Shown: in pieces, positions 217 through 17,591 of the stretch | How the letters are laid out: every line of letters starts with the position of its first letter | How positions within the stretch are numbered: the stretch's first letter is position 1 | NCBI RefSeq assembly: GCF_000015805.1 | Contig: NC_009073.1 | Coordinates: 720,001-752,000 of the forward strand | Direction of reading: 5' to 3' | Origin: Pyrobaculum calidifontis JCM 11548 | GTDB lineage: Archaea > Thermoproteota > Thermoprotei > Thermoproteales > Thermoproteaceae | DNA: 32,000 nucleotides | Made by a program: the position numbers and the translations under genes | The notes under the pieces: model-generated | The model's database searches: none | What the model was told of the DNA's origin: nothing | The model's input: the letters and a program-made list of their open reading frames with translations, nothing else

Positions 217-797
217 GTCGGGCCAATAGGCGCGCCGACCCCCTCCGCATAGCCCTTGAGAGGCTTAGGCGGGACTTCCCCGGGAAAAGCCGCTCTTGGA
301 TCAAAAGGGCTTTGTTGAGACTGCCGTATGTGCGTGAAGTAAGAGATGGCCTCTACGTCGTGGAGGGCGTGAGGGAGCTGGGGGATTGGAAGCCCCTCTA
401 CCAAGTGTGGTGGAGCGGGCGGGAGGGGCGTTGGGAGTGCACGTGTTATTATTCGACGTGGGGGTGGAGGAGGCGGAGGGGCATATGCACACACGTGGCC
501 TCTGTCCTCCTCTATCGCCGCTTCAAGAGGGCGGTGGAGGCAGTTGAGAACCGCCCCGTCTACTTCGCATCAGCTGAGGTGGAGTGTGTAAACGTGAAGG
601 TGAGGGGGTCGCTGGAGCACCGCATCACCCCCCTCGAGAAGGCTGGGTCGCTCCTCGACTTCGCCAGGGGGAGGCGGTATGTAGTTTACATAATCGCCGA
701 GGGGCCGTCTGCCGAGCTGTTGTGCGACGGGTCGCCGGTGGAGCTGGCGTGGGAGAGGCTCAGCCTAAAAGTGGCCAAGGCCCTCCTAGAGGGCTGA
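213..797 (+). CDS. SWIM-type zinc-finger protein (about 194 aa if the GTG 213 start is used)
   Basis: C-x-C-x(n)-C-x-H signature CTCYYSTWGWRRRRGICTH at nt 438-494. The frame is open to TGA 795-797. GTG 213 is preferred over track start 42 because it gives a GTGA overlap with the upstream ORF and avoids a 170-nt two-frame overlap. Confidence 0.65.
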   Translation: MSRANRRADPLRIALERLRRDFPGKSRSWIKRALLRLPYVREVRDGLYVVEGVRELGDWKPLYQVWWSGREGRWECTCYYSTWGWRRRRGICTHVASVLLYRRFKRAVEAVENRPVYFASAEVECVNVKVRGSLEHRITPLEKAGSLLDFARGRRYVVYIIAEGPSAELLCDGSPVELAWERLSLKVAKALLEG

Positions 798-1019: not shown

Positions 1020-1481
1020 ATGCCCAAACCCGCGTTTGCGGCAGTGGCGCTGGCCGCGCTTGTGCTGGCACAGCTCGCAGTGGCGCAGGCCACAACTACG
1101 CCTGCCAGCGGCGGCGGTGGCGGCGGCGTTACCAGCGTGGAGTTTTGGCAGAACATCGCCTCTGGCGTGGGGAAGTGGCTTAGGGCAATATTCGCCATCG
1201 CCTTCTGGTCTTCTCTCATCTTGTTGACCTTCTACGCCATTATGACCCAAGTGGCGCCCTCCAAGGTCTTCCGGCTGGGCGCATTGGTGGACCTCATCGA
1301 GAGCGTGAAGACTGTGTTGTTAGGCATCTTCGTCTTCACAGCCTCCGTCACCGGCATTATCGCAGGCGTGGCGGCCATAGCCAACGCCTTCGGCGCCTCC
1401 TTCGGAGTATCGCCAATCGACGTAGTAAACGCCCTCATATTCCAGCCAATAGTAGACATGGTAAAAGTGGTAACTGGGTAG
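1020..1481 (+). CDS. Secreted small membrane protein, 153 aa: signal peptide plus two long hydrophobic helices (VirB2/TrbC/TedC-type pilin-like architecture; hypothesis)
   Basis: MPKP n-region, then an 18-residue Ala/Leu/Val h-region ending AQA|TTT (A-x-A cleavage-type site, aa 22-24). Gly6 run at nt 1110-1127. Helices LRAIFAIAFWSSLILLTFYAIM and VKTVLLGIFVFTASVTGIIAGVAAIANAF are joined by the basic loop APSKVFRLG. The next ORF starts 4 nt after the stop. Confidence 0.75.
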   Translation: MPKPAFAAVALAALVLAQLAVAQATTTPASGGGGGGVTSVEFWQNIASGVGKWLRAIFAIAFWSSLILLTFYAIMTQVAPSKVFRLGALVDLIESVKTVLLGIFVFTASVTGIIAGVAAIANAFGASFGVSPIDVVNALIFQPIVDMVKVVTG

Positions 1482-1485
1482 GGCA

Positions 1486-2418
1486 ATGACGCTTACCTCA
1501 AACACGCCCCTTTTTTCCACCTCTCCTTCCCTCTCCTCGCCTACTCCCTCGCCCTCCCTAGCCCTCTTCCTCCCCTCCACAGGCATACCAGTGCTGGACG
1601 TGGGGCTGGCTGTGCTGGGGGCCATGGCCACATACGGCGCAATTCTCTGGCTCATGGGGGTTAGGCGCCTTAGGGAGGAGGCTGTGGACGCCTTTCTACA
1701 CGCCATATTCGGCGCGGCGCTGTTCGCAGTGGCCCTCGTCATTGGGAACTTGGCGGTGCAGGCCGCTTCGGCCTACTACGACTATGCCAATGTAAGCAAA
1801 TTGTGCTTCAACCTCGCCGGCCAGCCGAGCTTGCTCGACGACTATAGGCGCTGGATTAACGCCACTATGAGGTGCGCCGCGGGCAACTTCTCAAGGTACG
1901 CAGACGCCGCCGCGGCCACACTGTCTGACATGTTCACCGGCGTGGCTGTGCTCGGCTTGCTCCCCGTGGTTCAGCAGTTCGCCTTCTCCTTCATGCAGAT
2001 CCTCTTCGCCGCGGCCACAGCCGCCACTTCGCTCATGGCCGCCTCCATAGCCGCCACGGTGGCAGGCTGGCTTTTGGGAAACGTAGCCGGCATGTACCTC
2101 CTAATGCTGGCCGCCATAGCCGTAACCCACGAGAGGACGAGGGTGCTGGGGGCAATAGTGCTGGGAGTGGCAACGGCGGCGCCGGCCCTCGTGACGTTGG
2201 CAGACACGCTGGTGGCGAAGTGGCCACCCGACAGCGTCAGACTCACCGGCTGGCACCACATTGTGACGTTCTGGGACTGGGGCGCCGTCGTCGACAAGGC
2301 CAAGGCCATATACGAGGCCGCCGTGACGGCGGGCATCGGCCTGTCGGTGTTTATCGCCGTTGCGGCCGCAGTGGCGTACCTCTTCTCAAGGGTGCCCCAC
2401 GCCATTGGGGTTGAATGA
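1486..2418 (+). CDS. Polytopic integral membrane protein, 310 aa (about 6-7 TM helices; VirB6/TrbL/CedA-like in architecture only)
   Basis: Ser/Thr/Pro-rich N-terminus and multiple 20+ residue hydrophobic segments. One hydrophilic loop (aa about 95-150) carries 2 Cys and all 3 N-x-S/T sequons of the protein (NVS, NAT, NFS). The stop TGA 2416-2418 overlaps ATG 2415-2417 of the giant ORF (ATGA). Confidence 0.7.
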   Translation: MTLTSNTPLFSTSPSLSSPTPSPSLALFLPSTGIPVLDVGLAVLGAMATYGAILWLMGVRRLREEAVDAFLHAIFGAALFAVALVIGNLAVQAASAYYDYANVSKLCFNLAGQPSLLDDYRRWINATMRCAAGNFSRYADAAAATLSDMFTGVAVLGLLPVVQQFAFSFMQILFAAATAATSLMAASIAATVAGWLLGNVAGMYLLMLAAIAVTHERTRVLGAIVLGVATAAPALVTLADTLVAKWPPDSVRLTGWHHIVTFWDWGAVVDKAKAIYEAAVTAGIGLSVFIAVAAAVAYLFSRVPHAIGVE

Positions 2419-5400
2419 CCTGTGGCCCGGCGCCCCCGGCCCCGCCCGCCCCGGGGGACCTCCTATGGTGGATAGTCGCCGCCGCGGGGTTCTACTCCTT
2501 CCTGAGGGCTTGGGCTAGGCGGGAGTGGGACTGGTTTCGCCCCATCCTAGGCGCACTGATCGCCATAGTCGTAACGCCCGCCGTGATAAACTTCGTAATT
2601 GGGGGACTGTTCGGCCACCCCACCCCCCTCTACTCGGTAGAGGGCTTCACCCTCGTTCTACCCTCGCTGGAGGCCCTTGAGCGAAACGCCGCACTGACCT
2701 GCGCCGCATACGACGCACTCGCAGAAGCGGCCAAGGCTCTGGCTAACGCATACGGCTACGTCACAGCCGCCACGGCGGCCATAGGCGTTTTGATGACGGC
2801 CATATTCGTCATGGCCGTCTTCACTGGCGCGGGGGTGGCGGCCGCCGTCCCCATCCTCTGGTCGATGTACAAGGCCTACAATGTGGCCAGCGGCGTCCAC
2901 GAGGTTCTCCTGTCCTTCTTCACCATCACCTTCTCCTTCATGGCCATCGTGGGGGTGCTTAAGCACTTGGCCCAGATAGCCCTCTGGTCGCCGTGGCTGA
3001 TCACCTTCGGCGTGGCGGCGCTGTCAGTGCCTAGGCTGAGGGGGATTGGAGCCCTATTCGTGTCGCTGGCCGTCATCTCAATAGTCGTGTCGTATGTGGC
3101 TGGCGCCTATGCCGCAGACGCCTACGCAACGGCGCAGTGGGCCCAAGCCATTGCAAAATGGGCCCTCGACCTCTCAAAAGAGTGGCAGACCGAGCAGAAT
3201 CTAACGGCCGGCGGCTCACCCGCCTACGTCTACATGCAGCCCGCCCTCTGGATAGGGCATTATAACAACACCTTTTCGACGAGGGCGTTGGAGGGCCTCT
3301 ACCAAGACCTCGTCAAAGACCCAGTCCTGGGCAATAACACGAGGGCCGCCGAGGCTTGGCGTAGGGCGCTGGAGGCGTGGAAGTTCGCCTACAACACGAC
3401 CATCCTGGCCCGAAACGTAACTAACGCCCCCCTCTACGGCGGCCTCGTCGCCGCCGTTGAGTATGGGAATAAGACCTGGTTCTTCAAGAGGGGCAACGCG
3501 ACAGACGAGTTGAAGGCCCTCGTGGTGTGGCTCGACATGGACGTCCATGTCTCAAACGCCAGCCTGTGCTCCATGGGCATGCTGGCCCCCGCAGAGAAGG
3601 CTCTCCTAGACCGATTCCTCCAGCGCAGGCCTGACAAGAGGGGCGAGTTTGAGACGTTGAACGAGACGGCGCACCGCCTCTGCCGCTACCTAGAGCGGAG
3701 CGGCTTGTTGCAGACGTGGGTTCTGACGTGGGATGGGGCGTTTAGGCGGCTTGTCCAGCCCTACACCTACAACGTGACTTACCACGTTGGCTTTCAAGCG
3801 GGCTCAGCCTACGGCGTCGCCGGCGCTTGGGGCTGGGTTGTTCCGCCGGAGGGGGAGAAGTGCTACGACGCCGATGGGAAAGAGGGCGGCTGCGGCTCGC
3901 TACTGGCCTCCCTCAAGCCTGGCCTCTACAAGTACGACGCGGCGGCTGGGCAGTGGGCCGCCAAGATAGACCCGTTGCCAGGCGCCGTGAAGTCTGTGTG
4001 GAACTTCACTGTGAGGGAGGCGGCCGACTCTTTCTACGTCAGCAAGTCTGTGGACCTCTACCACTACACCGAGTACTGCCGCTGGTGCGCCCAGTGGGTC
4101 AACGGCACGTGCGTAGACTGGCGACTGTCGTGGCGGGACTGGTACGAGAGGTATAGAGTCGACTGGAACTACACCACCCGCTACTACAACGCCACCGTCG
4201 CATGGGTAGACAAGCCGTGGAGGCCCAGCCACCTCGCCCACCCCTCCTCCAAGGTGGTGCAAGTGCCTTGGACTGAAGCCATCGCCGTCGTGGTAAAGTG
4301 GCGGGAGGCCGGGCCTTGGTGGCCTGACCAGCCGGGCAACTACTGCGCAAACTGGTGGACCACTGCGCCGGACGTCTACAAGGTGGTGACGGTGTTTCAC
4401 ACGCCCCGCCAGCCGGCCGTCGGCTACGTGTACGGCTGGGCTTGGCTGTCGAGGGCAGACGTGGCGTACGCCTACAACTCCACCACCCTCATTGGACAAA
4501 TCTCCTCTAGTCCTCAGGAGGACGTGTGGATGGAAGGCGCAGTGCAGTCGGCCTACTGCGCACTGGCCATGGACCGCTACCCGTACTGGGCTGTTGACAA
4601 CGCCACGCTGAGATACGCCATTGGCAATTTGACTGCTATAAACCGCAGGGCCCTCGCCGCCGGCGTTACGTACAACAACCTCACGGCTAGGTGGTGGCAA
4701 CTGCGCCACATCGACGAGGCCTTCCAAAAGCTTGAGGCAGACGTCCAGAGGGCCATGAACTCCCCCGACCCAGAGGAGAGGAGAGACGCCCAGGTGGTGT
4801 GGAACTTGGTACAGTTCTACCGCCGAATGGCGCAGATAGACGTGGGACAGCTGGCCTTCCTCCCGCCGCCCCACGAGGAGCCGGAGGGCTACCAGCTACA
4901 CCAATACCACGTGGTGTGCATCAACTTCCACTGGAAGGCCAAGACCGCCGTAAACGGCACCACGAGGATGGAGCCCGCCGCCCTTTGGACCATCGGGGCC
5001 ACCGGCTTCCCCTTGGGCTACACAAACCTAACCGACTTCTTGATTGGGAGGCTGGCGGACTTCTACGCCCGCCTCTTTAGGAAGGGCTTTCCTCCCCCGC
5101 CCAAGAACGTCACTCTCGTGGCGTGGCTTGGGGACAGGCGCTTCGAGGTAAGGGGCTACACCCGCTTTGCCGCCGGCGGGGAGTGGTGGTGGGACGGCTC
5201 GCCGCTGCCCTACACCCCCGTCGATTATAACAAGACGGGCGCGCTTCCGGCGTCTGTGTGGGGCTTCCCCATCTACGACATATACGGCGTTGTTTTTCAA
5301 GCCCTCGTCCTAATGGCCTCGATTGCTGGTGAAGCGTGGGCTAGGATGGTGGCGGGCAGCCTATACGCTTTGGGCGCTCTTGAGGCCCTCGGCCACCTCT

Positions 5401-8400
5401 TTGGCTTTCCCACGCCGGTTCGCCTCATCTACCCACTGGTGCTAGACATTATCTCCCAGCTGGGCTACTGGCTTATGATACGCGTGGCGATTAGGGCCAA
5501 GCTCGTGGCGAGGCTTCTGAGGCCAGTGAAGGTCTACATTGATAGGGCGGGCAGGGCCGTCGCCTCTAAGATACCTCCCGCCCCAGAGTGGCTTAGGCGC
5601 GCCTTTGGCTGGTATGTGAGACACGAGCCCACGCCGCTGAGGGTGGTCAGAGTGCACATGCTCAGCGCGGTTGAGCAAGTGAAGAGGAGGTTCTGGGAGG
5701 AGCTGCGGAAAAGGCTTAGGGAGCTTGAGAGAGGGCGAATACGCGGAGAGGAGCTGGAAGAGGCGGCGCGGGAAGCCGCCAGATCGGCCGCTGAAGGTGC
5801 GAAGCAGGCGGCAAAAGAGGCCGTCAAGAGGACGTGGTACGTCCTCCAATCCCACGACGTGGTTGAGTTTGCTAGGAGGGTGTCGGGGAGGGCCGACGCC
5901 TTCTTCCGCACCATGGAGGAGAAGCTCATTGAGGCACATCCAGCCATCGCCGTTCTTCTGGCCCTCTACAGGGGGCCCTACGGGGTATTCGCCATCGTAT
6001 CCGAGGGCGCAATTAGGTGGCTTCTGCGGACTGGCCGAATCACCGCGCAGGAGGCTGAGGAGCTTAGGCGGCTTAGACACCTCTTCTGGGCCATGGCGGC
6101 AGAGTCCCGAGCCAGGGCAGTGGCGATGGAGAGGCCCAATGAAGAGGCGTTGAAGCACTACTTTGAGCATAGGGAGAAGGTGTTGCGCGTCGTCTTATCG
6201 ACGGTTGAGCAGATCAAGGAGGCTAAATCAAAAGAGGAAATAGAGAGAGCTTTGTACAGCGCCGCAGAGCACCTGGCCAGAATCGACCTAAAGGCCGTCG
6301 AGCGTGTGAGAGAGGCCTTTGAGCTGGCGGCCTTCGGCAGGAGGGTCGGCATCGGCACCACGGCCAAGCTGGCCGAAGCGCTGTGGGAAAAGCGCGTTGG
6401 GATTGAGGCCGTGGTGGAGAGGGCCAAGGAGCTACTGCGGATGCACTACGAGAGTGCTCCTCTCTCCTACGAGGAGTTGAGACATGCGGCACTAATGCGG
6501 CAGATCGTGTTAGTCAAGCCGCTCTACGCCGCCCTCGCAGAGGCTAGGCTGTACGCCGCAGAGGGCGGGGTTGAGCAGGCTAAGAGGGCATATGAGGCGT
6601 TGAAAGCCGTAAAGCCCTTTGAGCGCTTCGGCGAAGTGCAGTTGAGGGAGCTTAGGTCGATGGCGAAGAGGGCCCTCTCCCTCGAAAGGAAGTTGACAGA
6701 GGTGGAGAGGGAGATCGCAAGGGTGAGGGAGCTTTTACCGACGGCGGATGGGCAGAGGGCCGCCCTTGAGGCCCAGCTCGCAAAGCTTGAGGCCCAGAGG
6801 GCCCACATCGCCGAGAGACTAAGGGAGCTGAGGGCCCGCATACGCGTAGAGGCTGGTGAAGCAATTGAGCGCATTGCCAGAACATACCGCGGCTTCTTGG
6901 AGGACGTTAGGCGTGAAGTAGATCCAGCGTTTAGGCGGCTTAGAGACGCCCTCGTGGCGGCTGAGGTTAGGCCTAGGCTAGTCGAGGAGCTCACAAACGC
7001 CGTCAAGCGGCACGAGGAGGTGATAAGGGGGGAGGCGGCGAGGTGGAGCGAGGCAGTGCAGAGGCTAGAGAGGGCCCTCTCCACGGAGATTACTGAAGAA
7101 GACATAAGGCTGGCCAAATCGCTAGGCCTCCACCGCCTGGCAGAATACCTTGAGTACGTGAGAGAGGTTAGGGCGGCTGATGCCGCGGCTTCTCAGCCGC
7201 TGGCCGACGTCAAGGTCAAGCTGGAGAGGGCTGAGGAGGTGGTTAGAAAGCTGGCGGAGGGGAAGGCGGATAGAGCACTGGCAGAGGCGGCTGAGGCCCT
7301 TGGCCTCAAGCGAGTTAAGGCATATGCAGAGGAGCAGATCAAGTGGAGGGCGGGGGAGCCCCTCACGACGTCGTTGCTGGACGCCCTAGAGGAGGCCAGG
7401 CGCTACGCAGACGCCCTTGCCAAGGCTGGGAGGGCGTTGTCGCAGTGGCGCTCCCTTGACGTGGCCGAGCTGAGAGAGGCGGCAAAGGCCGCTAGGGAGG
7501 TGGGCCTTGAGCAGGCGGCCAAGGCCATTGAGCGCTTTGTGGAACTCAAGCAGAGGCAGGTGTCAGACACTGCGCTGGGCGAGCTTTCCAAGGCAAAGGC
7601 CGTGGCAGAGGGCTTGAAGGCGTTGTTGGAGGGCCGCCTCCTTGAGCGGCTGGCCGAGGTAAAGGCCGCCGCTGAGGCCCTAGGCCTAAAGGACGTTGAA
7701 AAAGCCGTTGTAAGGCTTTCGGCCGTCTCGCACGTCGAAAGCCTGGAAGAGGCGTACCGCGCGCTTAAGGCTCAGTTCGAAAGAGAGGGGAGAGACACGT
7801 CGCGCCTCGACGAGGCTTATCAGAGGCTGAAGAAAGTGTCGGAGGACCTGGCCAAGGCGAAGGAGGACGTCAAGGCCGCCGTTAAGAAGTACAAAGAGGT
7901 AATCAGGCGTGAGGCGGTTAGGTGGGGCGAGGGCGTCCATCAGTTGAAGGCCCTCTTCGAGTCTCAGATGTCTGCCGAAGACGCCCTAAAGGGCGTTGAA
8001 GTTGCAAAGGCGCTGGGCCTCAGGCGCGTTGAGAGGTTCTTGGAGGAGTATGTAAAATACATACCGAAGAGGGAGGAGTACTCAGTTGCGGCGACGGCGG
8101 TTAAGGCGGCTAGAGAGAAGGCCCTCTCCGTTGAACCGTTCGCCAGGAGGGAGCTGGAGGAGGCCGTGGCAAAGGCCTCCTCGGCGGAGAAATTGTTGAC
8201 GTCACTGTGCGAGTTGTACAACGTCGGTGCCGAAGAGGCGAAGCGTCTCTCCGAGTTGGCAAAGGGCGTTGGGCTTGGGGGGGCGGCGCAGTTCTTCGCC
8301 GAGTGGGGCAAGGTGGCTAAGGAGGCGTCTGAGAGGAGGGAGTTTGAGGCTCTCTCGAGGCTGGCTAAAGGCTTGGCGAAGGGCCGTCTGGCTGAGGAGG

Positions 8401-11400: not shown

Positions 11401-14400
11401 TTGAGGCGTTGAGAGGAGAGCTGTCGGCCATCACCCCGGCCGACCTAGTGGCCGACGTGGTGAACAAGAGGGGCGAGGTAATCGCCCGCCTCAAGAAGGC
11501 GCTGGAGGAGGCGAGGGCAGAGGTTGTGAGGGCAGTCTTCGACTCGATTAGGACTGCTGGTGTCAGACGCATTCCGCGTGAGCTGTTGGAGCTGGCGGCC
11601 TCTACCCACTTTACGCCGGAGGAGTTGAGGATGTTGTTGACAGAGCTAGACGCTGTTAGGGCTGTGGAGGAGAGGGCCGTCGGGTGGCCCTCCTTCGCCG
11701 AATACACGCCGTACATCTTCGCCACGACGGACGAGGCAGTGGCGAGGGCTTGGCGCAAGGGCGGTGGGCTGGTGTACGAGGCATATGAGCTCACAGAGGC
11801 CGGCCCGCGCCGCGTCTACGTCCTAGCGCCCAAGAATGCGCCAATAGACGAAATTAGGGAGGCGTTTCTGTCGCTTAGAGGGGTTGAGATTGTGGGCGAG
11901 CCCCGCTGGATTTCCTGGGACGCCGTTGAAGCCCTTGGCTATGTCGTCGAGCGCACAGAGAAGGGCGTCGTCGTTAGGCCACGCGCCGAATATCAACTAA
12001 GTTTGGAGAAGCCTCTCCCGAGGGCTAGGGAGGCTTGGGAGGTGGTGAAGCGGTTTAGGCCGGACGTGGTGAGAGAGGCACTTGGCCACGGCTGGGAGCT
12101 GGTGCACTGGGAGGATGGCGTAGAGGCCGTCAACGCATATTTGTTCTTGCGCAAGCTTAGGGGCTGGGAGAAGTTCGAGGGCGGGGACGTGGAGCGGATG
12201 TTCGACGAGCTTCGGCGTTGGTATACGCCGGGGCTTGAGCGCCATGCCGCCGTCATTTCGCGTAGGATGTATGGCTTTGACGCCGTTGACTGGCTGAAGG
12301 GGGCCTACGCGGTGTGGGCGAGGAGCCGCGGCGAATTTGTCGCCAAGTACGTGCACAGAGACCCGGAGGCCCTCGCCCGCGTCGTCTGGTGGGCGAAGAA
12401 GTGGGCGTGGGGTAGGCTGTACGACCTGCTTGAGCTAGAGTTCAGAGACCCCACTGTCCTTAGGGCGGTGAACATCGCCGTCAAGCGCGGCTTTCTGTCG
12501 TGGGGAGAGGCGCTCGACCTCTTCCACGAGTGGGTTAGGAGGAACAACATAGCGAAGTGGGATGAGGAGGCGCTGAGGATTGCCCTCCGCGGAAACATAA
12601 CGTCGGAGGACTACGAGAGGGCCGTTCGGGCCTTCATCACCTCGGTGAAGACGGCGCAACAGCTGGAGGCCGAGCGGGAGGCGCTGGAGCGGTGGAAATT
12701 GCTACAGGAGAGGATGAGAGAAGAGGCGGAGAAGGCGAGGGCAAGGCGAGCCACCAGACTCAGGCCGGAGGCGGCTCCTAAAGAAGAAGCTAGGCCAAGG
12801 GAGGAAGTTGAGCAGAGAGAGGCCGCAGTGAAGCCGGGTGAAGAGGCGAAGGAGGCGGCTCCGAGGGAGGAGGCCAAGCCGGCGGTTGAGAAAGCTGAGG
12901 AGAAGGAGAAGCCCTCCGCCGTGGAGAAGCCGCCTACGGCCGAGGCGGCCCGCGGAGTGGAGGAGAGGAGGGCTGTCGAGGAGAAGAAGGAAGCTGAAGA
13001 GAGGAGAGAGGAGGAGTTTGTCCGCGTTGGGAAAGTCATGGTGAAGAAGGGCTATGAAGACGACGCCGTGGTGAAGGCCTTCGCCGCTGAGGACCCGCAG
13101 AACTGGTTTACAAAGCTGACGCCGGAGACCTACTTCAGGCTGAGAGAGACACTGGCGCCGGCCTACCTGCACTACCTGGAGAGGGCTAGGGAGTGGGCCG
13201 CCTCACGGGAGAGGGCCCTCTCAATACTCGCAAGCAGGCACGGCCGCATTGACATACCGAAGAGAGTCAAGGATAGGGCTGTGGAGAAGGCGAGGGCAGA
13301 GCTTGAGAAACACGCCGCCAGGCTTGTCTACCGCTACGGCGAGGAGAAGGCCCAGGCGGCCCTCGTGAAAATCGGCATCCTCCTTGAGGAGTGGGTGAGA
13401 GAGGGCGAGTTGCCAAACGCCCATGCGGAGATTTTGAGGGCTATGTGGGCTTGGGAGGGGGAGGAGAAGACGGCCAATGTGACAAGAGAGTGGGGCTTTT
13501 GGCTCTTCCGCGAGCACTTCGCAGAGCTGAAGAAAACGGCGGAGGCCCTCGGCGTTGATGTAATGCACCTCTGGAACGCCTACCGTGCCGCGCTTGAGCG
13601 GTACTTGGCCGCTGTGTTTGCCTACGGCGGCCTTGTGGAAAAGGCAGTCACGACGGTGGACAAGGCCCTCTACACGACGCTGGTCGCCGCCGGCGGCGTC
13701 GCATTGGCTGAGGCGTTGCAAGGCGTCGTTAGGCCTGAGATCGTCTACACGGTGTCGTCTGCCGCCTCCCTCGCCTTAGCGGGTAGGTACAGGGAGGCCG
13801 TTGACGTCATCAAGACAGCGGTGCACAACGTCGAGCTGGCGGTGAGGCGCGTCGCGGGCGAGGTTAGAGTCGCCGTTGAGCGCCTCTATGAGGCCATAGT
13901 CGAAGCCGTCGCCAGATTGCTACAGTGGCTTGGCGAGCACTGGCGCGTACTGGCGTTTGTCACAGCCGCGGTGGCGGCCGGCTTGTTGACGTGGATGGCG
14001 GCTCAGCAGATACTGGCCGACGTCGACATGGCGCAGTTTGCCAAACTGGCCGCCGGCGGATTCTTCGGCTTGGCCGGCGTTAAAAAGGTCGACGTTGACA
14101 AAGCCTTAGACGACGTGTTGAGCGGGCTTAGGGCAATGGAGGGCCTTGAGAGGGGCGGGCTCGCCGGCCACGTCTCTAGGGGCTACGCGTCGGCCGACTT
14201 TGCCCGCCTTGTTGAAGAGGCTGTTAAGGCCAGGCTGAGGGCTGAGGCGGAGGCGGCCGAGGCCGGGCGCTTGATAAGGGCCAAGCTTGCGGGCGGGGCG
14301 GCGCCGCGGGGCGACTTCGATCGCTTTGCCTTAAACGCCGCGGCGGTTGCAGACACGGCGCTTGGCCTCGTTTACGAGGCCCTGAGGCAGAAGTGGAGGG

Positions 14401-17400
14401 CCGTGGCTAGACCCGGCATTGTGGAGAACTACGCCCATGTGGACAAGAAGTTTGCCGAAGTGTTCAACGTGCGCGAGAGGGACGTGGTGCACTTCCTGCG
14501 CTATGATGTAGGAGATATAGCATATGGAGACGCCAAGACAGAGGGAGCTGTCGTGTTGGTTTTCCTGGGTGGTGAAAAGATCATAAGGGTGGAGGTGTTG
14601 GCCAAGTCCGTCGCCGGCCTCCCAATACGCTTTAAGGAAGTGGAGTGGGGTGGAGGGAGGTGGGTTTGGTTGGCCACTGCTATGATTAACAAGCCCAAGA
14701 ACTATGTGGCGCGCATCGAGCTCAGATTTACTGAGAAGCCGGAGGTCGAGGTGAGGGGCGGCGCCGCAGGCGTTGAGGGGCTTAGGGGCCTACTGGCGAC
14801 GGACGCCTATGGGAAAGAGATAGGAACCCCAGACCCGCTTCTCGTCAAGCTTTTCATCGACCACTTCGAGAAAGCGAAAGTCGAGGTGGCTGGGGTGACG
14901 CTAACTAAGGCCGGCTTCTCGCTTCAGTTCAGAGCTGTCACACTGGACGAAAAGCCGTTTGAAGAGCTATTCGGCGACATAGCCAAGAAGTATGGGAAGG
15001 ACTTGTGGGAAATCATGAAGAAGACCAGAGAAATGTGGCGGGAGGCTGTGCGCAAGTTGTACAAAGACATCATGCGCGTGGCCAATGAGGCGGCCGAGGT
15101 GGGCAAGGTGAAGGGCGTTGAGGCGGGGAGGGAGGCCCTCGTCGAGGGTCTAAAGCGCTTGTTTGAGGAGAGGGAGCGGGAGGCGCTAAGCGCCGGCCGC
15201 CTCGACGATGCCCTCGCGATTGCAGTGGCGGGCCGCCTTCTGTTGGGCATTGTGAACAGCCCAAGGGAATGGTTCTCGCTGTTGGCCGGCGATGGCGTAG
15301 TGGACATTGGCGGCAAAACGCTGGGCTTCTCAGCCAAATACGCCGAGGTTGCCGAGGTCGTTCTCCGCCTGTTGGCCGCGTGGGCTGGCGCATATGGAGC
15401 GGGAATAAGGGCGAAGGAGCGTATGGCCGTGTATTCCAGCGCCGACGACATAGTCAAAGTCCTTGGGGCCATCTTCAAGGGCGAGGTGTTGAAATACGCG
15501 GAGTCCTCGGCAAGGTCGTGGAGTGGGCTTGCCGGCTCACATACACCTAAGGTCATCTCGCTTCTGGCCCTCGCCCAGCTCCTCGGCGTAGTCGAGGGGA
15601 AGTGGGCCGTGGAGCTGTGGCTCGCCCACAAGGCCGCAACGACGCTTGCGGAGCCGGAGGTGGCCCAAGCGCTCGACAAGTTCTTTGCCAGAGTTGAGGG
15701 CGTCGGCGAAGTGAAGTGGGAAGAGAGGGGCGTCAACCTCTACTTCAAGGTGAGGGGTTTAGAGGATGTCGAGCGCACAGCTACGCTGAAGTTGTACACA
15801 GACTTCCATAACTTCCACCTCTCCTGCGACTCGTGTAACGAGGTCTCGGTGAGGAGGGTTCTTGAGACTGTGGCCGAGTGGCTGAGGCCTGCGGTGGAGC
15901 TGTTGGAGGAGCGGCTGAGGCTGGCCGCCGAAAAGCAAAAGTGGCCGAGGTGGCATTGGAACTCTCTCGACCTCCCGGCAGAGGTGGGCTGGCCCATGTT
16001 TTTAAAACTGTGGAGGGTGTATAATATGTCTCTCCGCGTGGAGGAGGGCGGGCGGGAGCTACTCCGCGTGGAGGTTCTGGAGGCTAGGGCGGATGGGACG
16101 GCGAAGTTCCGCCTTTGGTTCTACAAGTGGCGCGAGACTAGGCCAGACCAGCCGTACGTGGACGTCGAAATAGAGCCATATCAGCGCAAAGGCGACAGTA
16201 TCGCCTTTAGAGGTAGCGTCTATGCCAACAAGGCTAAGGGTATTCTCAGAGACCACTTGGCCGAGATTGCCGATCTGCTGAAGCGCGAGGGGGTGGAGGG
16301 CGTGTCGCTGGTGCGTGACGGCAAAGTGCTTGAATTCTCAAGCGCTTTCCGCGACTCCGTCCTCGGAAGGCTTAGCATTAGGCCGGAGCTCCCGCCGGGC
16401 GAGCCGCCAGCTGTGCAGTACTTGGGCGGCCTTAGGTTTAGAGTGGGCGATAAAGAGGTGGAGTTCGGCGAGAGGGTCTTTGGCAAGACGAGAGAGTTCT
16501 ACGCAGAGCCGATGTTTCTGTCTAGAGAGGAGGCCGAACGCTTCGCATCGTCGCTTAAGGCCGTGGGAGTAGACGCAAGGATAGTCGGCAACGTGGTTAG
16601 GCTAGACAGCGACTCCTTCTTCGGTCTGCTCGCCGTTACAAATGCCACGCCGCCAGGCCTTACGCCGCTGTACCGCTCCAATGATCTACAGGTATACGCC
16701 AGCGCCGAGGGCGGCCGTATGCGCTTCTACTTCGCCGTAAAGCACGAGGGAGTGTGGAGGGCCGTCGAGGGGCTGTACGAGGAGAGAGCTCTCGAGCTCT
16801 GGCGCAAAGAGCGCGAAGTCCTTGAAGCCGTCAGAGACGCTGTGGCGAGAGCGCTTAAGGAGCTGGGCCACCCGGCGGAGGTGGGAGAGCCGAAGGAGAG
16901 AGTGGACGAAAAAGGTAGCGCTGTAGGCCACCGCCTCCTCCTATACGGCCCCCACCTCAAGCCGTTTCTGGAGCACGCCGTTAGGCACGTAGAGGCAAAG
17001 CCTGTCGAGGTGCGGCTGGAGGGGAGACACATCGTTATCAGTGCAGGCAATGTTAAGGCAGAGGTTGAGTTCAAACTGTTGAAGCACAGGGAGGCCGAAT
17101 TCCTCGTGGCTCAAGACGTGGTACAGACTCTCGCCCTTTACAAGTCGCTCAAGGAGATGGGCGTGCCCGTGGAGATTACGCCAGAGGGCGTCAAGATTGA
17201 CAGCGAGACGCTGTGGGCCCTCGTGGCAATAGCAGTTGAGAGGGATACGCCCAGCGCGTTGCCCGCCGAGGTTATGCCTGGCGTAAAGCTCTTGAAAGTA
17301 TATAATGTCGGCAACATGCATATGTACATATTCTGCGCCGAAGGCGACCACTACTACTTCGTCGTAAAGACTGGGCAGGAGTGGAGAGCGGCAGGCGGAA

Positions 17401-17591
17401 AGAAAAGCGGCAGACATGTGATGATCGCTGGCAAAGCCGCCGTGGTCATCGTAGAAGCCATAAACGCCCTATACCGCGAAAAGGGAGTAGAGAGAAGGGT
17501 TGAGGTGAAGCACGACAAGCACAATGACAGACACTACATCTATCTCACTAACGTAGACTTGAGGCTGTTAGGCGTGGAGCCGACGTTATAG
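2415..17591 (+). CDS. Giant multi-domain membrane protein, 5,058 aa. Order of domains: N-terminal polytopic domain; sequon-rich ectodomain; TM cluster; about 2,400-aa Ala/Glu/Arg/Leu-rich helical repeat region; Glu/Lys/Pro/Ala linker; late hydrophobic segment; C-terminal beta-rich repeat modules
   Basis: Single open frame of 15,177 nt. At this GC content a random frame should hit a stop every few tens of codons. The ATG start is coupled by ATGA to the upstream ORF. Domain-specific amino-acid composition and internal protein-level duplications show it is a genuine coding sequence. I recognised no enzymatic signature. Confidence 0.9.
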   Translation: MTCGPAPPAPPAPGDLLWWIVAAAGFYSFLRAWARREWDWFRPILGALIAIVVTPAVINFVIGGLFGHPTPLYSVEGFTLVLPSLEALERNAALTCAAYDALAEAAKALANAYGYVTAATAAIGVLMTAIFVMAVFTGAGVAAAVPILWSMYKAYNVASGVHEVLLSFFTITFSFMAIVGVLKHLAQIALWSPWLITFGVAALSVPRLRGIGALFVSLAVISIVVSYVAGAYAADAYATAQWAQAIAKWALDLSKEWQTEQNLTAGGSPAYVYMQPALWIGHYNNTFSTRALEGLYQDLVKDPVLGNNTRAAEAWRRALEAWKFAYNTTILARNVTNAPLYGGLVAAVEYGNKTWFFKRGNATDELKALVVWLDMDVHVSNASLCSMGMLAPAEKALLDRFLQRRPDKRGEFETLNETAHRLCRYLERSGLLQTWVLTWDGAFRRLVQPYTYNVTYHVGFQAGSAYGVAGAWGWVVPPEGEKCYDADGKEGGCGSLLASLKPGLYKYDAAAGQWAAKIDPLPGAVKSVWNFTVREAADSFYVSKSVDLYHYTEYCRWCAQWVNGTCVDWRLSWRDWYERYRVDWNYTTRYYNATVAWVDKPWRPSHLAHPSSKVVQVPWTEAIAVVVKWREAGPWWPDQPGNYCANWWTTAPDVYKVVTVFHTPRQPAVGYVYGWAWLSRADVAYAYNSTTLIGQISSSPQEDVWMEGAVQSAYCALAMDRYPYWAVDNATLRYAIGNLTAINRRALAAGVTYNNLTARWWQLRHIDEAFQKLEADVQRAMNSPDPEERRDAQVVWNLVQFYRRMAQIDVGQLAFLPPPHEEPEGYQLHQYHVVCINFHWKAKTAVNGTTRMEPAALWTIGATGFPLGYTNLTDFLIGRLADFYARLFRKGFPPPPKNVTLVAWLGDRRFEVRGYTRFAAGGEWWWDGSPLPYTPVDYNKTGALPASVWGFPIYDIYGVVFQALVLMASIAGEAWARMVAGSLYALGALEALGHLFGFPTPVRLIYPLVLDIISQLGYWLMIRVAIRAKLVARLLRPVKVYIDRAGRAVASKIPPAPEWLRRAFGWYVRHEPTPLRVVRVHMLSAVEQVKRRFWEELRKRLRELERGRIRGEELEEAAREAARSAAEGAKQAAKEAVKRTWYVLQSHDVVEFARRVSGRADAFFRTMEEKLIEAHPAIAVLLALYRGPYGVFAIVSEGAIRWLLRTGRITAQEAEELRRLRHLFWAMAAESRARAVAMERPNEEALKHYFEHREKVLRVVLSTVEQIKEAKSKEEIERALYSAAEHLARIDLKAVERVREAFELAAFGRRVGIGTTAKLAEALWEKRVGIEAVVERAKELLRMHYESAPLSYEELRHAALMRQIVLVKPLYAALAEARLYAAEGGVEQAKRAYEALKAVKPFERFGEVQLRELRSMAKRALSLERKLTEVEREIARVRELLPTADGQRAALEAQLAKLEAQRAHIAERLRELRARIRVEAGEAIERIARTYRGFLEDVRREVDPAFRRLRDALVAAEVRPRLVEELTNAVKRHEEVIRGEAARWSEAVQRLERALSTEITEEDIRLAKSLGLHRLAEYLEYVREVRAADAAASQPLADVKVKLERAEEVVRKLAEGKADRALAEAAEALGLKRVKAYAEEQIKWRAGEPLTTSLLDALEEARRYADALAKAGRALSQWRSLDVAELREAAKAAREVGLEQAAKAIERFVELKQRQVSDTALGELSKAKAVAEGLKALLEGRLLERLAEVKAAAEALGLKDVEKAVVRLSAVSHVESLEEAYRALKAQFEREGRDTSRLDEAYQRLKKVSEDLAKAKEDVKAAVKKYKEVIRREAVRWGEGVHQLKALFESQMSAEDALKGVEVAKALGLRRVERFLEEYVKYIPKREEYSVAATAVKAAREKALSVEPFARRELEEAVAKASSAEKLLTSLCELYNVGAEEAKRLSELAKGVGLGGAAQFFAEWGKVAKEASERREFEALSRLAKGLAKGRLAEEVALAAGEGLEVGRWLRAVEGVKPLYERAVEEASRLKTTAELAKRLSESVERWRYLDAGELRAAAQMAREGGFTKTAEFLEKAADFKAVVETAREVFERHEKVLKRLRALEQSARHELSKAVTIAEGLRALLEGDFYDRLSEARRAARALGLSEVDEALARLGRVKLSIERVGDEYAYDVGGAVRRVMADFGVDRLLLRAPLSAYVVATIEASIAREAASVFRQAFARYEREVATTAVYLPVREAQKLGPVVSPITAAFDFRSYVDELVKAGDLRRYYSSGGRAWRELAHLVAKASGAVLDLRAARKALEKGDDASIALAIALAYRAAKTYMRLEGDIRPLADVVAEVRYRLGLYDRTWAEFIEKVEGEKAKAKILEALRPRTVEEAVEQLKAAWAKSNYHALEERLGLTRTYAIPDADRALEYTAKALTAYRLAAMGFEEALSVARAQSFIRTAERYLRGRPLETPAREQPLYVARALARPLPEVKPSAIDEVAREAVIRLLREVEAGGAKAKALWRQVEELVKVSPDAFAEVVAYASSARGLAAHWARQLVAKMRREWDTYRTLWEAPVAIRLERLRDIPAAKVEAPVPRELVALALWAELAAKARPTAAKDIEAIKRVVGEVSPAALEEARLRAERVRAVLDDIEKLKAVDVERPVYIAFSSLEREVPGEDVKALTIDERAELLKAQRYLKHSDPRVAREGELLAKFAAGELTRSQLADELRKLGGPYTQEGCGAIEMPNRLKDIHAVLTAKLANEVAILRDVEELRHVAVGTAFHTAVRAGLGDEDAWRELRALAALDKAAERAVRYAELLRILRALSEGLERVVYETELAKRWPEYRHVLLEREYVLKRAEELRREGPERAIVAGLLEQFAEGRITRSELIEAARQKGVDLHEFSRNGVERVRGDVIRAVREAAAEFKQFAGAPRSLRDLLEGKLPRGLYAKMAEEIGVADVVYAELGVPARYAKYGLLEGIERYVKELKKLVLQLPGDASRALVAIEALRGELSAITPADLVADVVNKRGEVIARLKKALEEARAEVVRAVFDSIRTAGVRRIPRELLELAASTHFTPEELRMLLTELDAVRAVEERAVGWPSFAEYTPYIFATTDEAVARAWRKGGGLVYEAYELTEAGPRRVYVLAPKNAPIDEIREAFLSLRGVEIVGEPRWISWDAVEALGYVVERTEKGVVVRPRAEYQLSLEKPLPRAREAWEVVKRFRPDVVREALGHGWELVHWEDGVEAVNAYLFLRKLRGWEKFEGGDVERMFDELRRWYTPGLERHAAVISRRMYGFDAVDWLKGAYAVWARSRGEFVAKYVHRDPEALARVVWWAKKWAWGRLYDLLELEFRDPTVLRAVNIAVKRGFLSWGEALDLFHEWVRRNNIAKWDEEALRIALRGNITSEDYERAVRAFITSVKTAQQLEAEREALERWKLLQERMREEAEKARARRATRLRPEAAPKEEARPREEVEQREAAVKPGEEAKEAAPREEAKPAVEKAEEKEKPSAVEKPPTAEAARGVEERRAVEEKKEAEERREEEFVRVGKVMVKKGYEDDAVVKAFAAEDPQNWFTKLTPETYFRLRETLAPAYLHYLERAREWAASRERALSILASRHGRIDIPKRVKDRAVEKARAELEKHAARLVYRYGEEKAQAALVKIGILLEEWVREGELPNAHAEILRAMWAWEGEEKTANVTREWGFWLFREHFAELKKTAEALGVDVMHLWNAYRAALERYLAAVFAYGGLVEKAVTTVDKALYTTLVAAGGVALAEALQGVVRPEIVYTVSSAASLALAGRYREAVDVIKTAVHNVELAVRRVAGEVRVAVERLYEAIVEAVARLLQWLGEHWRVLAFVTAAVAAGLLTWMAAQQILADVDMAQFAKLAAGGFFGLAGVKKVDVDKALDDVLSGLRAMEGLERGGLAGHVSRGYASADFARLVEEAVKARLRAEAEAAEAGRLIRAKLAGGAAPRGDFDRFALNAAAVADTALGLVYEALRQKWRAVARPGIVENYAHVDKKFAEVFNVRERDVVHFLRYDVGDIAYGDAKTEGAVVLVFLGGEKIIRVEVLAKSVAGLPIRFKEVEWGGGRWVWLATAMINKPKNYVARIELRFTEKPEVEVRGGAAGVEGLRGLLATDAYGKEIGTPDPLLVKLFIDHFEKAKVEVAGVTLTKAGFSLQFRAVTLDEKPFEELFGDIAKKYGKDLWEIMKKTREMWREAVRKLYKDIMRVANEAAEVGKVKGVEAGREALVEGLKRLFEEREREALSAGRLDDALAIAVAGRLLLGIVNSPREWFSLLAGDGVVDIGGKTLGFSAKYAEVAEVVLRLLAAWAGAYGAGIRAKERMAVYSSADDIVKVLGAIFKGEVLKYAESSARSWSGLAGSHTPKVISLLALAQLLGVVEGKWAVELWLAHKAATTLAEPEVAQALDKFFARVEGVGEVKWEERGVNLYFKVRGLEDVERTATLKLYTDFHNFHLSCDSCNEVSVRRVLETVAEWLRPAVELLEERLRLAAEKQKWPRWHWNSLDLPAEVGWPMFLKLWRVYNMSLRVEEGGRELLRVEVLEARADGTAKFRLWFYKWRETRPDQPYVDVEIEPYQRKGDSIAFRGSVYANKAKGILRDHLAEIADLLKREGVEGVSLVRDGKVLEFSSAFRDSVLGRLSIRPELPPGEPPAVQYLGGLRFRVGDKEVEFGERVFGKTREFYAEPMFLSREEAERFASSLKAVGVDARIVGNVVRLDSDSFFGLLAVTNATPPGLTPLYRSNDLQVYASAEGGRMRFYFAVKHEGVWRAVEGLYEERALELWRKEREVLEAVRDAVARALKELGHPAEVGEPKERVDEKGSAVGHRLLLYGPHLKPFLEHAVRHVEAKPVEVRLEGRHIVISAGNVKAEVEFKLLKHREAEFLVAQDVVQTLALYKSLKEMGVPVEITPEGVKIDSETLWALVAIAVERDTPSALPAEVMPGVKLLKVYNVGNMHMYIFCAEGDHYYFVVKTGQEWRAAGGKKSGRHVMIAGKAAVVIVEAINALYREKGVERRVEVKHDKHNDRHYIYLTNVDLRLLGVEPTL
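3198..5237 (+). other. Predicted extracellular, N-glycosylated Trp/Tyr/Cys-rich domain of the giant protein (aa 262-941)
   Basis: By direct count there are 22 N-x-S/T sequons in about 680 aa, against 4 in the remaining about 4,380 aa. There are 10 Cys. Trp clusters include DWRLSWRDWYERYRVDWNY, GPWWPDQPGNYCANWW and GGEWWWDG. The domain is flanked by hydrophobic TM clusters (nt 2460-3130 and 5270-5500). Confidence 0.6.
7002..8895 (+). repeat. Diverged tandem duplication inside the giant ORF (two units of about 245 and 335 aa, each with four 'xxLGLxxV/A' helical sub-repeats)
   Basis: Unit 1 starts VKRHEEVIRGEAARWSEAVQRL (nt 7002). Unit 2 starts VKKYKEVIRREAVRWGEGVHQL (nt 7881). Later segments also pair: WRSLDVAELREAAKAAREVGLEQ with WRYLDAGELRAAAQMAREGGFTK, and AEGLKALLEG..AAEALGLKDVEKAVVRL with AEGLRALLEG..AARALGLSEVDEALARL. 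LGL-type motifs lie near nt 7122, 7299, 7503, 7683, 8013, 8272, 8600 and 8845. Confidence 0.75.
10441..11075 (+). repeat. Second internal duplication in the giant ORF (about 47-aa conserved core, about 160-aa period)
   Basis: ERAELLKAQRYLKHSDPRVAREGELLAKFAAGELTRSQLADELRKLG (10441-10580) aligns with EREYVLKRAEELRREGPERAIVAGLLEQFAEGRITRSELIEAARQKG (10931-11075). By eye roughly 40% of positions are identical, including LL..FA.G..TRS.L. Confidence 0.55.
12655..13017 (+). repeat. Low-complexity Glu/Lys/Ala/Pro/Arg linker of the giant protein (aa about 3414-3535)
   Basis: Purine-rich GAR/AAR/GCN codon run encoding EAEKARARRATRLRPEAAPKEEARPREEVEQREAAVKPGEEAKEAAPREEAKPAVEKAEEKEKPSAVEKPP..EEKKEAEERREEEF. 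It also generates long spurious antisense ORFs (12611-13039, 12702-13172). Confidence 0.7.
15732..17369 (+). repeat. Four diverged copies of a beta-strand module in the C-terminal region of the giant protein
   Basis: VNLYFKVRG (15732-15755); AKFRLWFYKWRE (16101-16136); LQVYASAEGGRMRFYFAVKHEGVWRAVEG (about 16686-16770); LKVYNVGNMHMYIFCAEGDHYYFVVKTGQEWRAAGG (about 17290-17395). The last two copies align clearly (L.VY....G...[FY]YF.VK....WRA..G). Confidence 0.5.

Follow-up and report, generated by a model that had tools for sequence, protein, structure and literature searches.

What does a single gene of 15,177 nucleotides (nt) do directly behind two genes of a DNA-transfer pilus? The question is raised by Pcal_0767 of Pyrobaculum calidifontis JCM 11548, an open reading frame (ORF) at 2415..17591 of a 32,000-nt stretch of the chromosome (NC_009073.1, positions 720,001 to 752,000; hereafter the window, to whose first letter our coordinates refer, all window ranges written with two dots being on the forward, or +, strand). 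The ORF encodes 5,058 amino acids (aa) from an ATG start, takes up 47% of the window and contains the terminal stop only. It follows tedC and tedA, genes of Ted ('Thermoproteales exchange of DNA'), the system described by Beltran et al. 2023 (PMC9905601). The results of this work suggest that Pcal_0767 (the giant, in what follows) is an overlooked third gene of the tedC-tedA operon, which builds the Ted DNA-transfer pilus. Both the protein and the Ted system are already on record, the former in databases and the latter in print; what appears to be new is the recognition of this gene as part of it.

The reading frame and its maintenance

At the base composition of the ORF a stop would be expected every ~30 codons, and 5,058 stop-free codons would arise by chance with a probability of ~1e-75. 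The GC contents at codon positions 1/2/3 (0.64/0.44/0.76) are coding-like, and the product is an exact match to the P. calidifontis JCM 11548 protein deposited as ABO08193.1, WP_011849451.1 and UniProt A3MU76, which NCBI and UniProt name 'chromosome segregation ATPase-like protein'. Over up to 11,481 nt, which take in the internally duplicated region of the giant, Logan assemblies of three independent runs (ERR9765783, ERR9765743 and SRR4136268) match the window at 100% identity, and a 72-kb contig of ERR9765783 carries the same 5,058-aa gene call. The intact ORF reported by the original prediction, which was made from the letters of this DNA alone, is thus upheld by the ORF call, the exact database match and the three assemblies, and the collapse or expansion of repeats during assembly, against which that prediction had advised a check, is excluded by the identity of the latter; that the repeats are only 32-39% identical as protein is a further reason against it. 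A fusion restricted to P. calidifontis, or created by assembly, was also considered, and is ruled out by the independent assemblies, by a fused orthologue that is 76% identical and by distant full-length orthologues. The claim that this is one of the largest conceivable archaeal proteins was, on the other hand, overstated, as the halomucin of Haloquadratum walsbyi has ~9,159 aa.

Against the orthologue at locus L012, the ratio of nonsynonymous to synonymous substitution rates (dN/dS) is 0.085 in the body of the giant, 0.21 across the junction with its C-terminal tail and 0.21-0.35 in the tail itself. Values this low in body, junction and tail indicate that selection maintains the fused ORF, with a looser hold on its tail. 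The gene of 5,058 codons is real and under purifying selection.

A conserved position behind tedC and tedA

The first of the two preceding genes, tedC (Pcal_0765; 1020..1481), encodes the VirB2-like pilin of the conjugation-like Ted pilus; its product matches WP_011849449 exactly, was identified as TedC by Beltran et al. 2023 (PMC9905601), and falls into a protein cluster that includes PDB 8DFT, 'Pilin protein', the structure of its filament. The second, tedA (Pcal_0766; 1486..2418), encodes a VirB6/CedA-like polytopic membrane protein, for which the same authors reported an HHpred match of 98.6% to CedA, and whose orthologues precede the giant elsewhere too. The TGA stop codon of tedA overlaps the ATG of the giant (ATGA; junction sequence GTTGAATGACC), which is a classic sign of translational coupling.

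The giant family is very rare, and evolves fast: a word-indexed search of 5.8 billion proteins returned one relative of aa 1-1030, and an exhaustive phmmer search of 1.84 billion representatives returned 12. All relatives with readable context sit in the order tedC-tedA-giant, with TedC and TedA confirmed by BLASTP at each locus. This order is found in six loci, whose proteins are 24-43% identical: a Thermoproteus metagenome-assembled genome (MAG; L011), where the giant orthologue is partial and runs off the contig; the Pyrobaculum MAG DRTY-8 (L013), where it has at least 4,345 aa and runs off the locus; Thermoproteus sp. CP80 (L014; 3,992 aa, complete); the Logan assembly DRR667284 (L015; 3,851 aa, complete); a JGI metagenome (L016), where the orthologue P0042 (L016 2884-11403) is complete at 2,839 aa; and an ENA metagenome (L017), where 2,516 aa are followed by an in-frame TAG, after which the frame continues. 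Named genera in this set are Pyrobaculum and Thermoproteus only, the loci of Vulcanisaeta, Caldivirga and Thermocladium lying outside it. TedA orthologues 27-41% identical directly precede the giant in L011 and L013-L017, and the start of the giant overlaps the stop of tedA by 4 nt in L011, L013, L014, L015 and L017 and by 1 nt in L016. The search for full-length orthologues advised by the original prediction was thus successful, in divergent Thermoproteales and at the same operon position, with complete lengths spanning 2,839 to 5,058 aa. Since the order is the same in all six loci, the giant appears to belong to the core of the tedC-tedA operon, in Pyrobaculum and Thermoproteus and in three further lineages at least.

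The TAG of L017 (~11690-11835, ..ALE*LKKVLREL..) is followed in the same frame by sequence matching P0042; the gene is either split there or a pseudogene, or the TAG is an error of sequencing.

A membrane domain related to TedA

The first 240 residues of the giant (2415..3134) form, by hydropathy, a polytopic membrane domain of 6-7 hydrophobic helices that is conserved in the six orthologues. Peaks lie at aa 44, 118, 164, 185 and 211 (Kyte-Doolittle, KD, 1.6-2.6), with weaker ones at aa 16-34 and 138-153, so that the 5-7 or more helices of VirB6/CedA/TedA-like proteins are present in the giant and its orthologues alike. The original prediction left this domain unassigned. When a profile of six giant N-termini was aligned by hhalign with one of the six cognate TedA proteins, aa 160-251 (2892..3167) matched TedA aa 168-267 over 92 columns (probability 70.7%, E 3.8e-5, score 41.6), and a motif preceding the last helix was shared, reading RTRALGG in the consensus of the giant family (PRLRGIGA in Pcal_0767) and ERTRxLGA in TedA. 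Pairwise BLAST between the giant N-terminus and TedA finds no similarity. Membrane proteins often yield spurious profile matches, and the controls were chosen for that reason: reversed alignments score 14-15 and 30 shuffles within 25-column blocks score at most 15.5. As these controls are flat, the similarity is not compositional, and the profiles thus argue that the N-terminal membrane domain of the giant is a paralogue of TedA. Taken together with the published relation between TedA, CedA and VirB6 (PMC9905601), this would make the giant an 'extended VirB6-like' protein.

Such a pair of paralogues would have a parallel in the Ced system of Sulfolobales, which, according to PMC11868833, has two VirB6-like paralogues, CedA and CedE, both of them required. 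CedE of Saccharolobus islandicus, described there as a CedA paralogue required for DNA import and export, resembles the giant, as far as that description goes, in adding another VirB6-like paralogue to the canonical one of an archaeal system for chromosomal DNA exchange. The likeness to TedA, CedA and VirB6 themselves lies in the polytopic N-terminal membrane domain and in the position of the giant gene, beside the pilin and VirB6-like genes of a locus derived from a type IV secretion system (T4SS), and with TedA it extends to profile-level homology over ~92 residues, the RTRxLG motif included. Extended VirB6 proteins, such as TraG of the F plasmid and RvhB6 of Rickettsiales, join a VirB6-type membrane module to a very large extra region, and the giant seems to be built likewise. 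It differs from them in that its extension, of 4,800 aa, is far longer than that of any of them, and in that it adds a predicted glycosylated ectodomain, a second membrane anchor, a helical region of ~2,800 aa predicted to be cytoplasmic and a tail with a predicted endonuclease fold.

A separate observation concerns TedA of L013. The ORF that contains it (L013 8697-10004) can be read ~130 aa further 5', where it opens with a signal-peptide-like MTPLFSLPLFFLLLALPAYAQ and a hydrophobic pilin-like stretch directly after the tedC stop. It may represent a pilin-like domain fused to TedA.

Ectodomain, topology and the helical region

The module map drawn by the original prediction (about six transmembrane helices in aa 1-240, a sequon-rich head, post-head helices, a region rich in Ala, Glu, Arg, Leu and Lys, a linker, a late hydrophobic segment and an alpha/beta C-terminus) proved accurate. 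The head, aa 262-941 (3198..5237), is rich in N-x-S/T sequons, Trp, Tyr and Cys (W 5.6%, Y 6.3% and C 1.5% in aa 262-939), and 22 of the 26 sequons of the whole protein fall within aa 262-939. As many as 22 of the 32 Asn of the head stand in sequons, against 9.5% expected by composition (binomial P = 7e-16; shuffled sequences average 3.0 and reach 11 at most), and in all six orthologues sequon density is about 30-fold higher in the head (2.5-3.2 per 100 aa) than elsewhere (0.03-0.11). Invariant Cys, Trp and a PPPP run across the orthologues are the mark of a folded extracellular domain, although one with no match in Pfam, NCBIfam or PDB and of no recognisable family.

Behind the head lies a membrane anchor (aa 953-1027; 5271..5495) with, by hydropathy, two strong helices (aa 953-976 and 1004-1026) and a weak one between them (KD 1.06). 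Its motif FEALxxLFGFP(T/S)P...YWL is conserved and leads into a strongly basic stretch. By the positive-inside rule and the depletion of sequons downstream, the anchor is predicted to span the membrane three times and to leave its C-terminus inside. That stretch, past aa 1026, and the dearth of sequons beyond it locate the other ~4,000 aa on the cytoplasmic side, and even after the late hydrophobic segment there are only 2 sequons in 1,170 aa. The giant is thus predicted to bridge a glycosylated head on the outside to a very long region on the inside, which is what the original prediction had proposed and what the sequon density of six orthologues and the basic stretch after the last post-head helix bear out. 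An alternative arrangement, in which the ectodomain would interrupt a TedA-like core at its last loop, was rejected, the post-head helices being unlike the last helix of TedA.

The region that follows (aa 1030-3410; 5502..12644) is helical and A/E/R/L/K-rich by composition and predicted to be cytoplasmic, and gives way to a highly charged E/A/R/K/P linker (aa 3414-3535; 12654..13019; E 29.5%, P 7.4%), of which P0050, another long orthologue, has an equivalent. The middle region has no match in Pfam, NCBIfam, PHROGs or PDB sequences. Between aa 1030 and 3840 a Pro or Gly break occurs every 30-66 residues, the longest run free of both being 66 aa, which suggests a string of short helices or bundles and not the single coiled-coil 'ruler' that had been imagined. 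The internal duplications of the protein, as traced by chunked self-BLASTP, are real, as predicted, and ancient. The most evident is a tandem one, of aa 1473-1771 with aa 1763-2159 (6831..8891; 32-39% identity, E 1e-12 to 5e-17, the mapped feature having values of 5e-17 and 6e-12), a second joins aa 4713-4786 to aa 4911-4995 in the tail (E 2e-6), and a third, short one joins aa 2676-2722 to aa 2841-2887 (E 3e-3). The helical region is collinear with that of the Pyrobaculum orthologue of L013 (37-49% identity), which aligns to both copies of the tandem duplication and is ~260 aa shorter there, the duplicated unit of ~290 aa being absent or single.

GC skew is strongly positive throughout window positions 6000-17000 (0.16-0.30), with the cumulative skew rising, over the helical and tail regions of the giant. 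This stems from the purine-rich Glu, Ala, Arg and Lys codons on the coding strand and not from replication.

Scanned in four pieces against Pfam, NCBIfam and PHROGs, the whole giant gives nothing above noise, and neither its head nor its middle, tail family or TedA-like domain finds a match in phmmer and profile searches of PDB sequences. There is no HExxH in the protein, and its sole Walker-A-like string (G-x4-GK[ST]; GERVFGKT at aa 4685) is not kept by its relatives. To this extent the earlier statement that no catalytic motif is recognisable stands; it overlooked two LAGLIDADG-like motifs in the tail, with Asp at positions 4130 and 4293.

The C-terminal tail

Body and tail meet at an 'EHW + hydrophobic' segment (aa 3845-3889; 13947..14081), delimited by hydropathy and conservation, in which EHW is followed by ~19 hydrophobic residues (aa 3845-3863, KD 2.03) and then by a shorter hydrophobic stretch. 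It is kept in all long orthologues (L012/P0018, L013, L014 and P0050), and is probably a membrane-dipping hairpin that re-tethers the chain. The tail, recognised by homology and by an AlphaFold2 (AF2) model with a predicted local distance difference test (pLDDT) score of 75, is an alpha/beta region of aa ~3836-5058 (13920..17588). The modules of its internal duplication (16551..17399) are also seen as repeats of AF2 secondary structure.

This region has a history of its own. More than 20 close relatives of the last ~1,220 aa are known, 45-76% identical, of which P0018, at locus L012, is fused and 76% identical over aa 3245-5054 of the giant. Most of the others are stand-alone genes of ~1,200 aa from hot-spring metagenomes, at least 17 of them full-length and 45-68% identical, and they lie in unrelated housekeeping contexts (L007 10001-13630 and 15291-19203, L008 9697-13684, L009 9640-13684 and L010 892-4575). 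The two copies of L007 flank a peptidase gene on one contig, the second being apparently disrupted near its 3' end (calls of 1,168 aa and 56 aa); the copy of L008 lies beside metabolic genes, and those of L009 and L010 both lie between rpl3 and rpl4. Stand-alone copies share ~250-360 bp of conserved upstream DNA, which has no Rfam match, and their similarity ends at the stop codon, so that the repeated unit measures ~4 kb. Their N-termini are homologous to aa 3836-3889 of the giant but polar, the segment being hydrophobic only in fused copies. No second copy of the tail was found in P. calidifontis itself.

Among the orthologues of the giant, the tail varies. The profile of its own tail family shows no similarity to the tails of the other orthologues, either by hhalign or by hmmsearch --max, and these tails are therefore not demonstrably homologous to one another. 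P0042, which is complete, stops short of the hydrophobic segment and lacks the alpha/beta tail, a PIN-domain gene and other unrelated genes following it. The original prediction had reasoned that modules always found as separate genes would mark the ORF as a fusion artefact. That argument fails for the first ~3,840 aa, which are always one gene. The last ~1,220 aa do occur as stand-alone relatives, and one orthologue lacks them; the mosaic of the giant thus has an evolutionary history which that prediction did not foresee.

The tail of the Thermoproteus CP80 orthologue (L014), in the region analogous to the repeated modules of the giant, passes the Pfam model PaRep2b (PF07775) with 44.5 bits against a gathering cutoff of 20.4 (E 1e-11). 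The paREP2b elements of Pyrobaculum are repetitive and have been described as putative transposons (PMC3558965). Like them, the closest relatives of the giant tail have a multi-copy, dispersed distribution (several loci, two copies on one contig), and the tail has repeated alpha/beta modules similar to those of PaRep2b. It differs in that the model matches neither the giant tail nor any of 17 members of its family, and in the absence of similarity to the CP80 tail at the level of hidden Markov models (HMMs).

Within the tail, aa 4105-4375 (14727..15539) probably adopt a LAGLIDADG fold of the double-motif (DOD) type, as the AF2 model and its Foldseek matches indicate. The two motifs, assigned by eye from the sequence, are LRGLLATDAYG, with D4130 (nt 14802-14804), and WFSLLAGDGVVD (WFSLLAGD(4293)GVVD), with D4293 (nt 15291-15293), and their T-D and G-D-G residues are invariant in 17-21 members of the tail family. 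Comparable motifs (LLGLVIGDGS, AIAGDGS and LFDGS) occur at similar distances past the hydrophobic segment in L013, L014 and P0050, the last of which has a sub-threshold match to Pfam LAGLIDADG_3 at the equivalent of the first motif (E 0.026, 15.2 bits against a cutoff of 22.5). The AF2 model of aa 4105-4375 (pLDDT 88.6, predicted TM-score 0.87) has an alpha-beta-beta-alpha-beta-beta-alpha second half, with a helical insertion of ~100 aa between the halves. In Foldseek searches of BFVD, the eight top matches (probability 0.54-1.00, E 0.04-0.41, TM 0.28-0.43) include six that are named as LAGLIDADG, DOD or homing endonucleases or Hint/intein domains, or are possibly intein-carrying enzymes; there are, e.g., the LAGLIDADG endonuclease of Halogranum virus HGTV-1, a LAGLIDADG domain protein, a DOD-type homing endonuclease and a Hint-domain protein, as well as a polymerase and a terminase whose sizes would allow inteins. 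Against PDB, the matches of highest probability are the endonuclease domain of the TliVMA intein (0.69) and WhiA (0.35-0.44), and the model of the whole tail gives only noise with a few weak meganuclease matches.

With LAGLIDADG endonucleases and their inactive derivative WhiA, the tail has in common two helix-terminal motifs with a conserved Asp and perhaps the topology predicted for its second half, and its relatives behave as dispersed, intergenic selfish genes. It differs from them in its ~100-aa insertion and its lack of recognition by Pfam, and in being embedded in a multi-domain region of 1,200 aa, LAGLIDADG enzymes usually having 200-300 aa and being free-standing or borne by inteins or introns. 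The domain may be an active nuclease, or it may only bind DNA, as WhiA does.

Neighbouring genes

The rest of the Ted locus lies in the 10 kb upstream, as read from a metagenome contig (L003) that is identical over tedC. It encodes there a ParA/CbiA-like ATPase, the VirB4/HerA-like TedB, a RadA/Rad51 paralogue, an AAA_16 ATPase and a protein of 194 aa. The gene of the latter maps to 213..797 of the window (from the gene call at L001 1233-1817; a GTG-extended ORF at 42-797 is a longer option), has no Pfam match and is kept at the same place 5' of tedC in L013 (65% identity) and L015 (48%). The AAA_16-type ATPase gene (L001 346-1236) ends near window position 216, just 5' of it, and in L013 and L015 both genes keep their position, with 48-75% identity. 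Along with the RadA paralogue, they are retained in several of the six synteny loci, and both are further candidate Ted components.

Where the Ted paper (PMC9905601) touches on 3' DNA tails, it names a 'Rad50 recombinase' that coats them, a description fitting RadA. No Rad50 signature was seen in the 10 kb upstream or in the giant itself, and the idea that the giant is the 'Rad50' in question was rejected, since the RadA/Rad51 paralogue of the locus (Pfam Rad51) fits the description. This paralogue is found at L003 7207-8145, L013 5222-6163, L015 3106-4047 and L017 1702-2652.

On the 3' side of the giant are housekeeping genes of the opposite strand (GH77, CoaBC, spermidine synthase and others), the convergent GH77 glucanotransferase gene being 13 nt away. 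Farther on, a 312-aa ORF at 19293-20228 (+) has weak, sub-threshold matches to HTH_3 and rubrerythrin and overlaps a 143-aa ORF at 19013-19441 (-). Rfam and tRNA scans of the window gave no non-coding feature.

Proposed role and alternatives

Relaxase and other T4SS functions are reported as still unfound in the archaeal Ted and Ced systems, for which more components are expected and no coupling protein or envelope-spanning scaffold is known, in organisms that are not genetically tractable (PMC9905601; PMC11823120). The giant could fill this gap. On balance, and with some caution, we favour the interpretation that Pcal_0767 is a conserved giant component of Ted, i.e., an 'extended VirB6-like' scaffold with a DNA-handling tail. 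From its identity, operon position, conserved synteny, paralogy to TedA, outside/inside partition and purifying selection, as established above, we infer how it might work. Made together with the TedC pilin and TedA from one operon, the giant would sit with TedA, by means of its TedA-like membrane domain, where the pilus or mating pore has its base. Its N-glycosylated, disulfide-capable head of ~700 aa would project through the pseudo-periplasm and the S-layer, where it could anchor the pilus or contact the partner cell, and the three post-head helices would return the chain to the cytoplasm. There, ~2,800 aa of short-helix bundles could offer a platform to the DNA-handling ATPases of the locus (TedB, the RadA paralogue, the ParA-like and the AAA_16 ATPase). 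Finally, in most lineages, the hydrophobic hairpin would re-tether the chain to the membrane, and the C-terminal LAGLIDADG-fold or paREP2-like modules would bind, and possibly nick, DNA entering or leaving the pore.

Several points weigh against this interpretation. Pcal_0767 goes unmentioned in the literature found on Ted, where it is drawn in the published locus and never discussed. The match to TedA spans only ~92 columns, covering the last three helices, at a probability of 70.7%, and hmmsearch of PDB sequences with the giant N-terminus and TedA profiles gave no direct link to bacterial VirB6. The middle region, of some 2,800 aa, and the head have no detectable homologue of known function, and the scaffold and contact roles are guesses from composition and topology. 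As for the tail, the Pfam models LAGLIDADG_1/2/3 match neither the giant nor its tail family, all structural matches of the domain have E values of at least 0.04 and TM-scores of at most 0.43, and a small profile of the LAGLIDADG motifs run against PDB gave only designed helical repeats and DARPins, which were rejected as spurious. The absence of hydrophobic segment and tail from P0042 means that the tail is not essential to the core function, and its closest relatives are dispersed genes with no linkage to Ted.

These last points lead to the main rival, according to which the size of the giant is mostly parasitic: the tail would be a paREP2-like, possibly mobile gene of homing-endonuclease type, fused in frame to the 3' end of a Ted protein of ~3,840 aa, and would add nothing to Ted. 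It would account for the 17 or more stand-alone relatives in unrelated housekeeping contexts, for their shared upstream DNA and abrupt end at the stop codon, as expected from a repeated element, and for the weaker constraint on the tail (dN/dS of 0.21-0.35 against 0.085 in the body). The variability of tails among orthologues, including their loss in one and the PaRep2b match of another to a family of repetitive putative transposons (PMC3558965), goes in the same direction. Yet a tail follows the hydrophobic segment in five divergent lineages (P. calidifontis, P0018, L013, L014 and P0050), so that the arrangement is old or recurrent and not a recent accident; the hydrophobic form of the junction is specific to fused copies; the tail is under purifying selection; and searches of plasmid, phage and IMG/VR collections yielded no relatives. 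We regard this explanation as unlikely, if worth serious consideration, and it is compatible with the core claim that the giant belongs to Ted. A polymorphic effector, in which the conserved body delivers an exchangeable nuclease-like C-terminal cassette, perhaps into the mating partner through Ted, would also make sense of a conserved body and EHW-hydrophobic junction followed by tails that are unrelated by BLAST and HMM, of stand-alone 'orphans' that keep homology to the junction (aa 3836-3889), and of the predicted nuclease-type fold. Conserved body and variable C-termini are indeed what the giant shares with Rhs/CdiA-like toxins. It lacks, however, their downstream immunity gene and array of orphan cassettes: no candidate immunity gene lies 3' of the giant, with the convergent GH77 gene 13 nt away, and each orphan is a whole gene elsewhere in the genome, preceded by the conserved upstream DNA and separately promoted, and not a promoter-less cassette beside the main gene. 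Besides, the sequon-poor tail is probably cytoplasmic and, at 1,200 aa, far larger than known toxin tips, which makes a delivered toxin improbable.

In the reading of the original prediction, taken as unrelated to DNA transfer, the protein would be a structural tether, ruler or cytoskeletal anchor that joins the cell surface to a scaffold inside. The topology, with its head outside and scaffold inside, and the huge helical region devoid of an enzymatic signature would suit such a role, which was proposed with no regard to genomic context and fits poorly with a linkage to tedC-tedA that is strict and translationally coupled in all six lineages and with the paralogy to TedA. Helices that are short and often broken make no measuring coiled coil, and lengths that vary from 2,839 to 5,058 aa among orthologues are incompatible with a ruler of fixed cell geometry. 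A generic tether is thus very unlikely, the polymorphic effector less likely still, and at the far end stands the SMC/Rad50-type chromosome-segregation or repair ATPase implied by the NCBI name. In its favour are that name and a charged helical composition resembling coiled-coil arms, and the likeness goes no further. The giant has no match to SMC_N, AAA_23 or the Rad50 zinc hook in Pfam and NCBIfam, or to any SMC or Rad50 among PDB sequences; CxxC occurs only at aa 555, in the ectodomain, and aa 4471, in the tail; and there is no conserved Walker A, nor are the N- and C-terminal motifs of an ABC-type ATPase head present. A protein with neither ATPase head, hinge, zinc hook nor long antiparallel coiled-coil arm (66 aa being its longest run free of Pro and Gly), and which seems to be a polytopic membrane protein and glycoprotein instead, does not deserve this label, which is refuted at the level of sequence and has next to no chance of being right.

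Significance

If the giant is indeed an extended VirB6-like component of Ted, it is hard to refrain from speculating on the function of its tail. In a bolder version of this reading, the tail would be a membrane-tethered nuclease or DNA-binding module of LAGLIDADG type acting in the role of a relaxase, with repetitive paREP2-type genes as its free-living, homing-endonuclease-like relatives; the paREP2-type genes of Pyrobaculum and Thermoproteus may then exploit the Ted machinery or have been spawned by it. We hold this to be a long shot. If true, it would provide the first candidate for a DNA-nicking component of archaeal chromosomal DNA exchange, and would explain the paREP2 elements.

To our knowledge, Ted and Ced are the only examples of a conjugation apparatus that has been domesticated to exchange chromosomal DNA. 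An extended VirB6-like protein that measures 2,800-5,000 aa and carries a predicted glycosylated head and a repeat-related tail of predicted endonuclease fold would have no described counterpart. A 15-kb gene in the pilin operon, whose product is predicted to reach from the glycosylated surface deep into the cytoplasm, is an obvious candidate for the missing scaffold of Ted, and its predicted endonuclease-fold tail is a concrete candidate for DNA handling in this system. The link to paREP2-type genes, in turn, would offer an initial clue to the function of a repeat family by which the genomes of Pyrobaculum are shaped.

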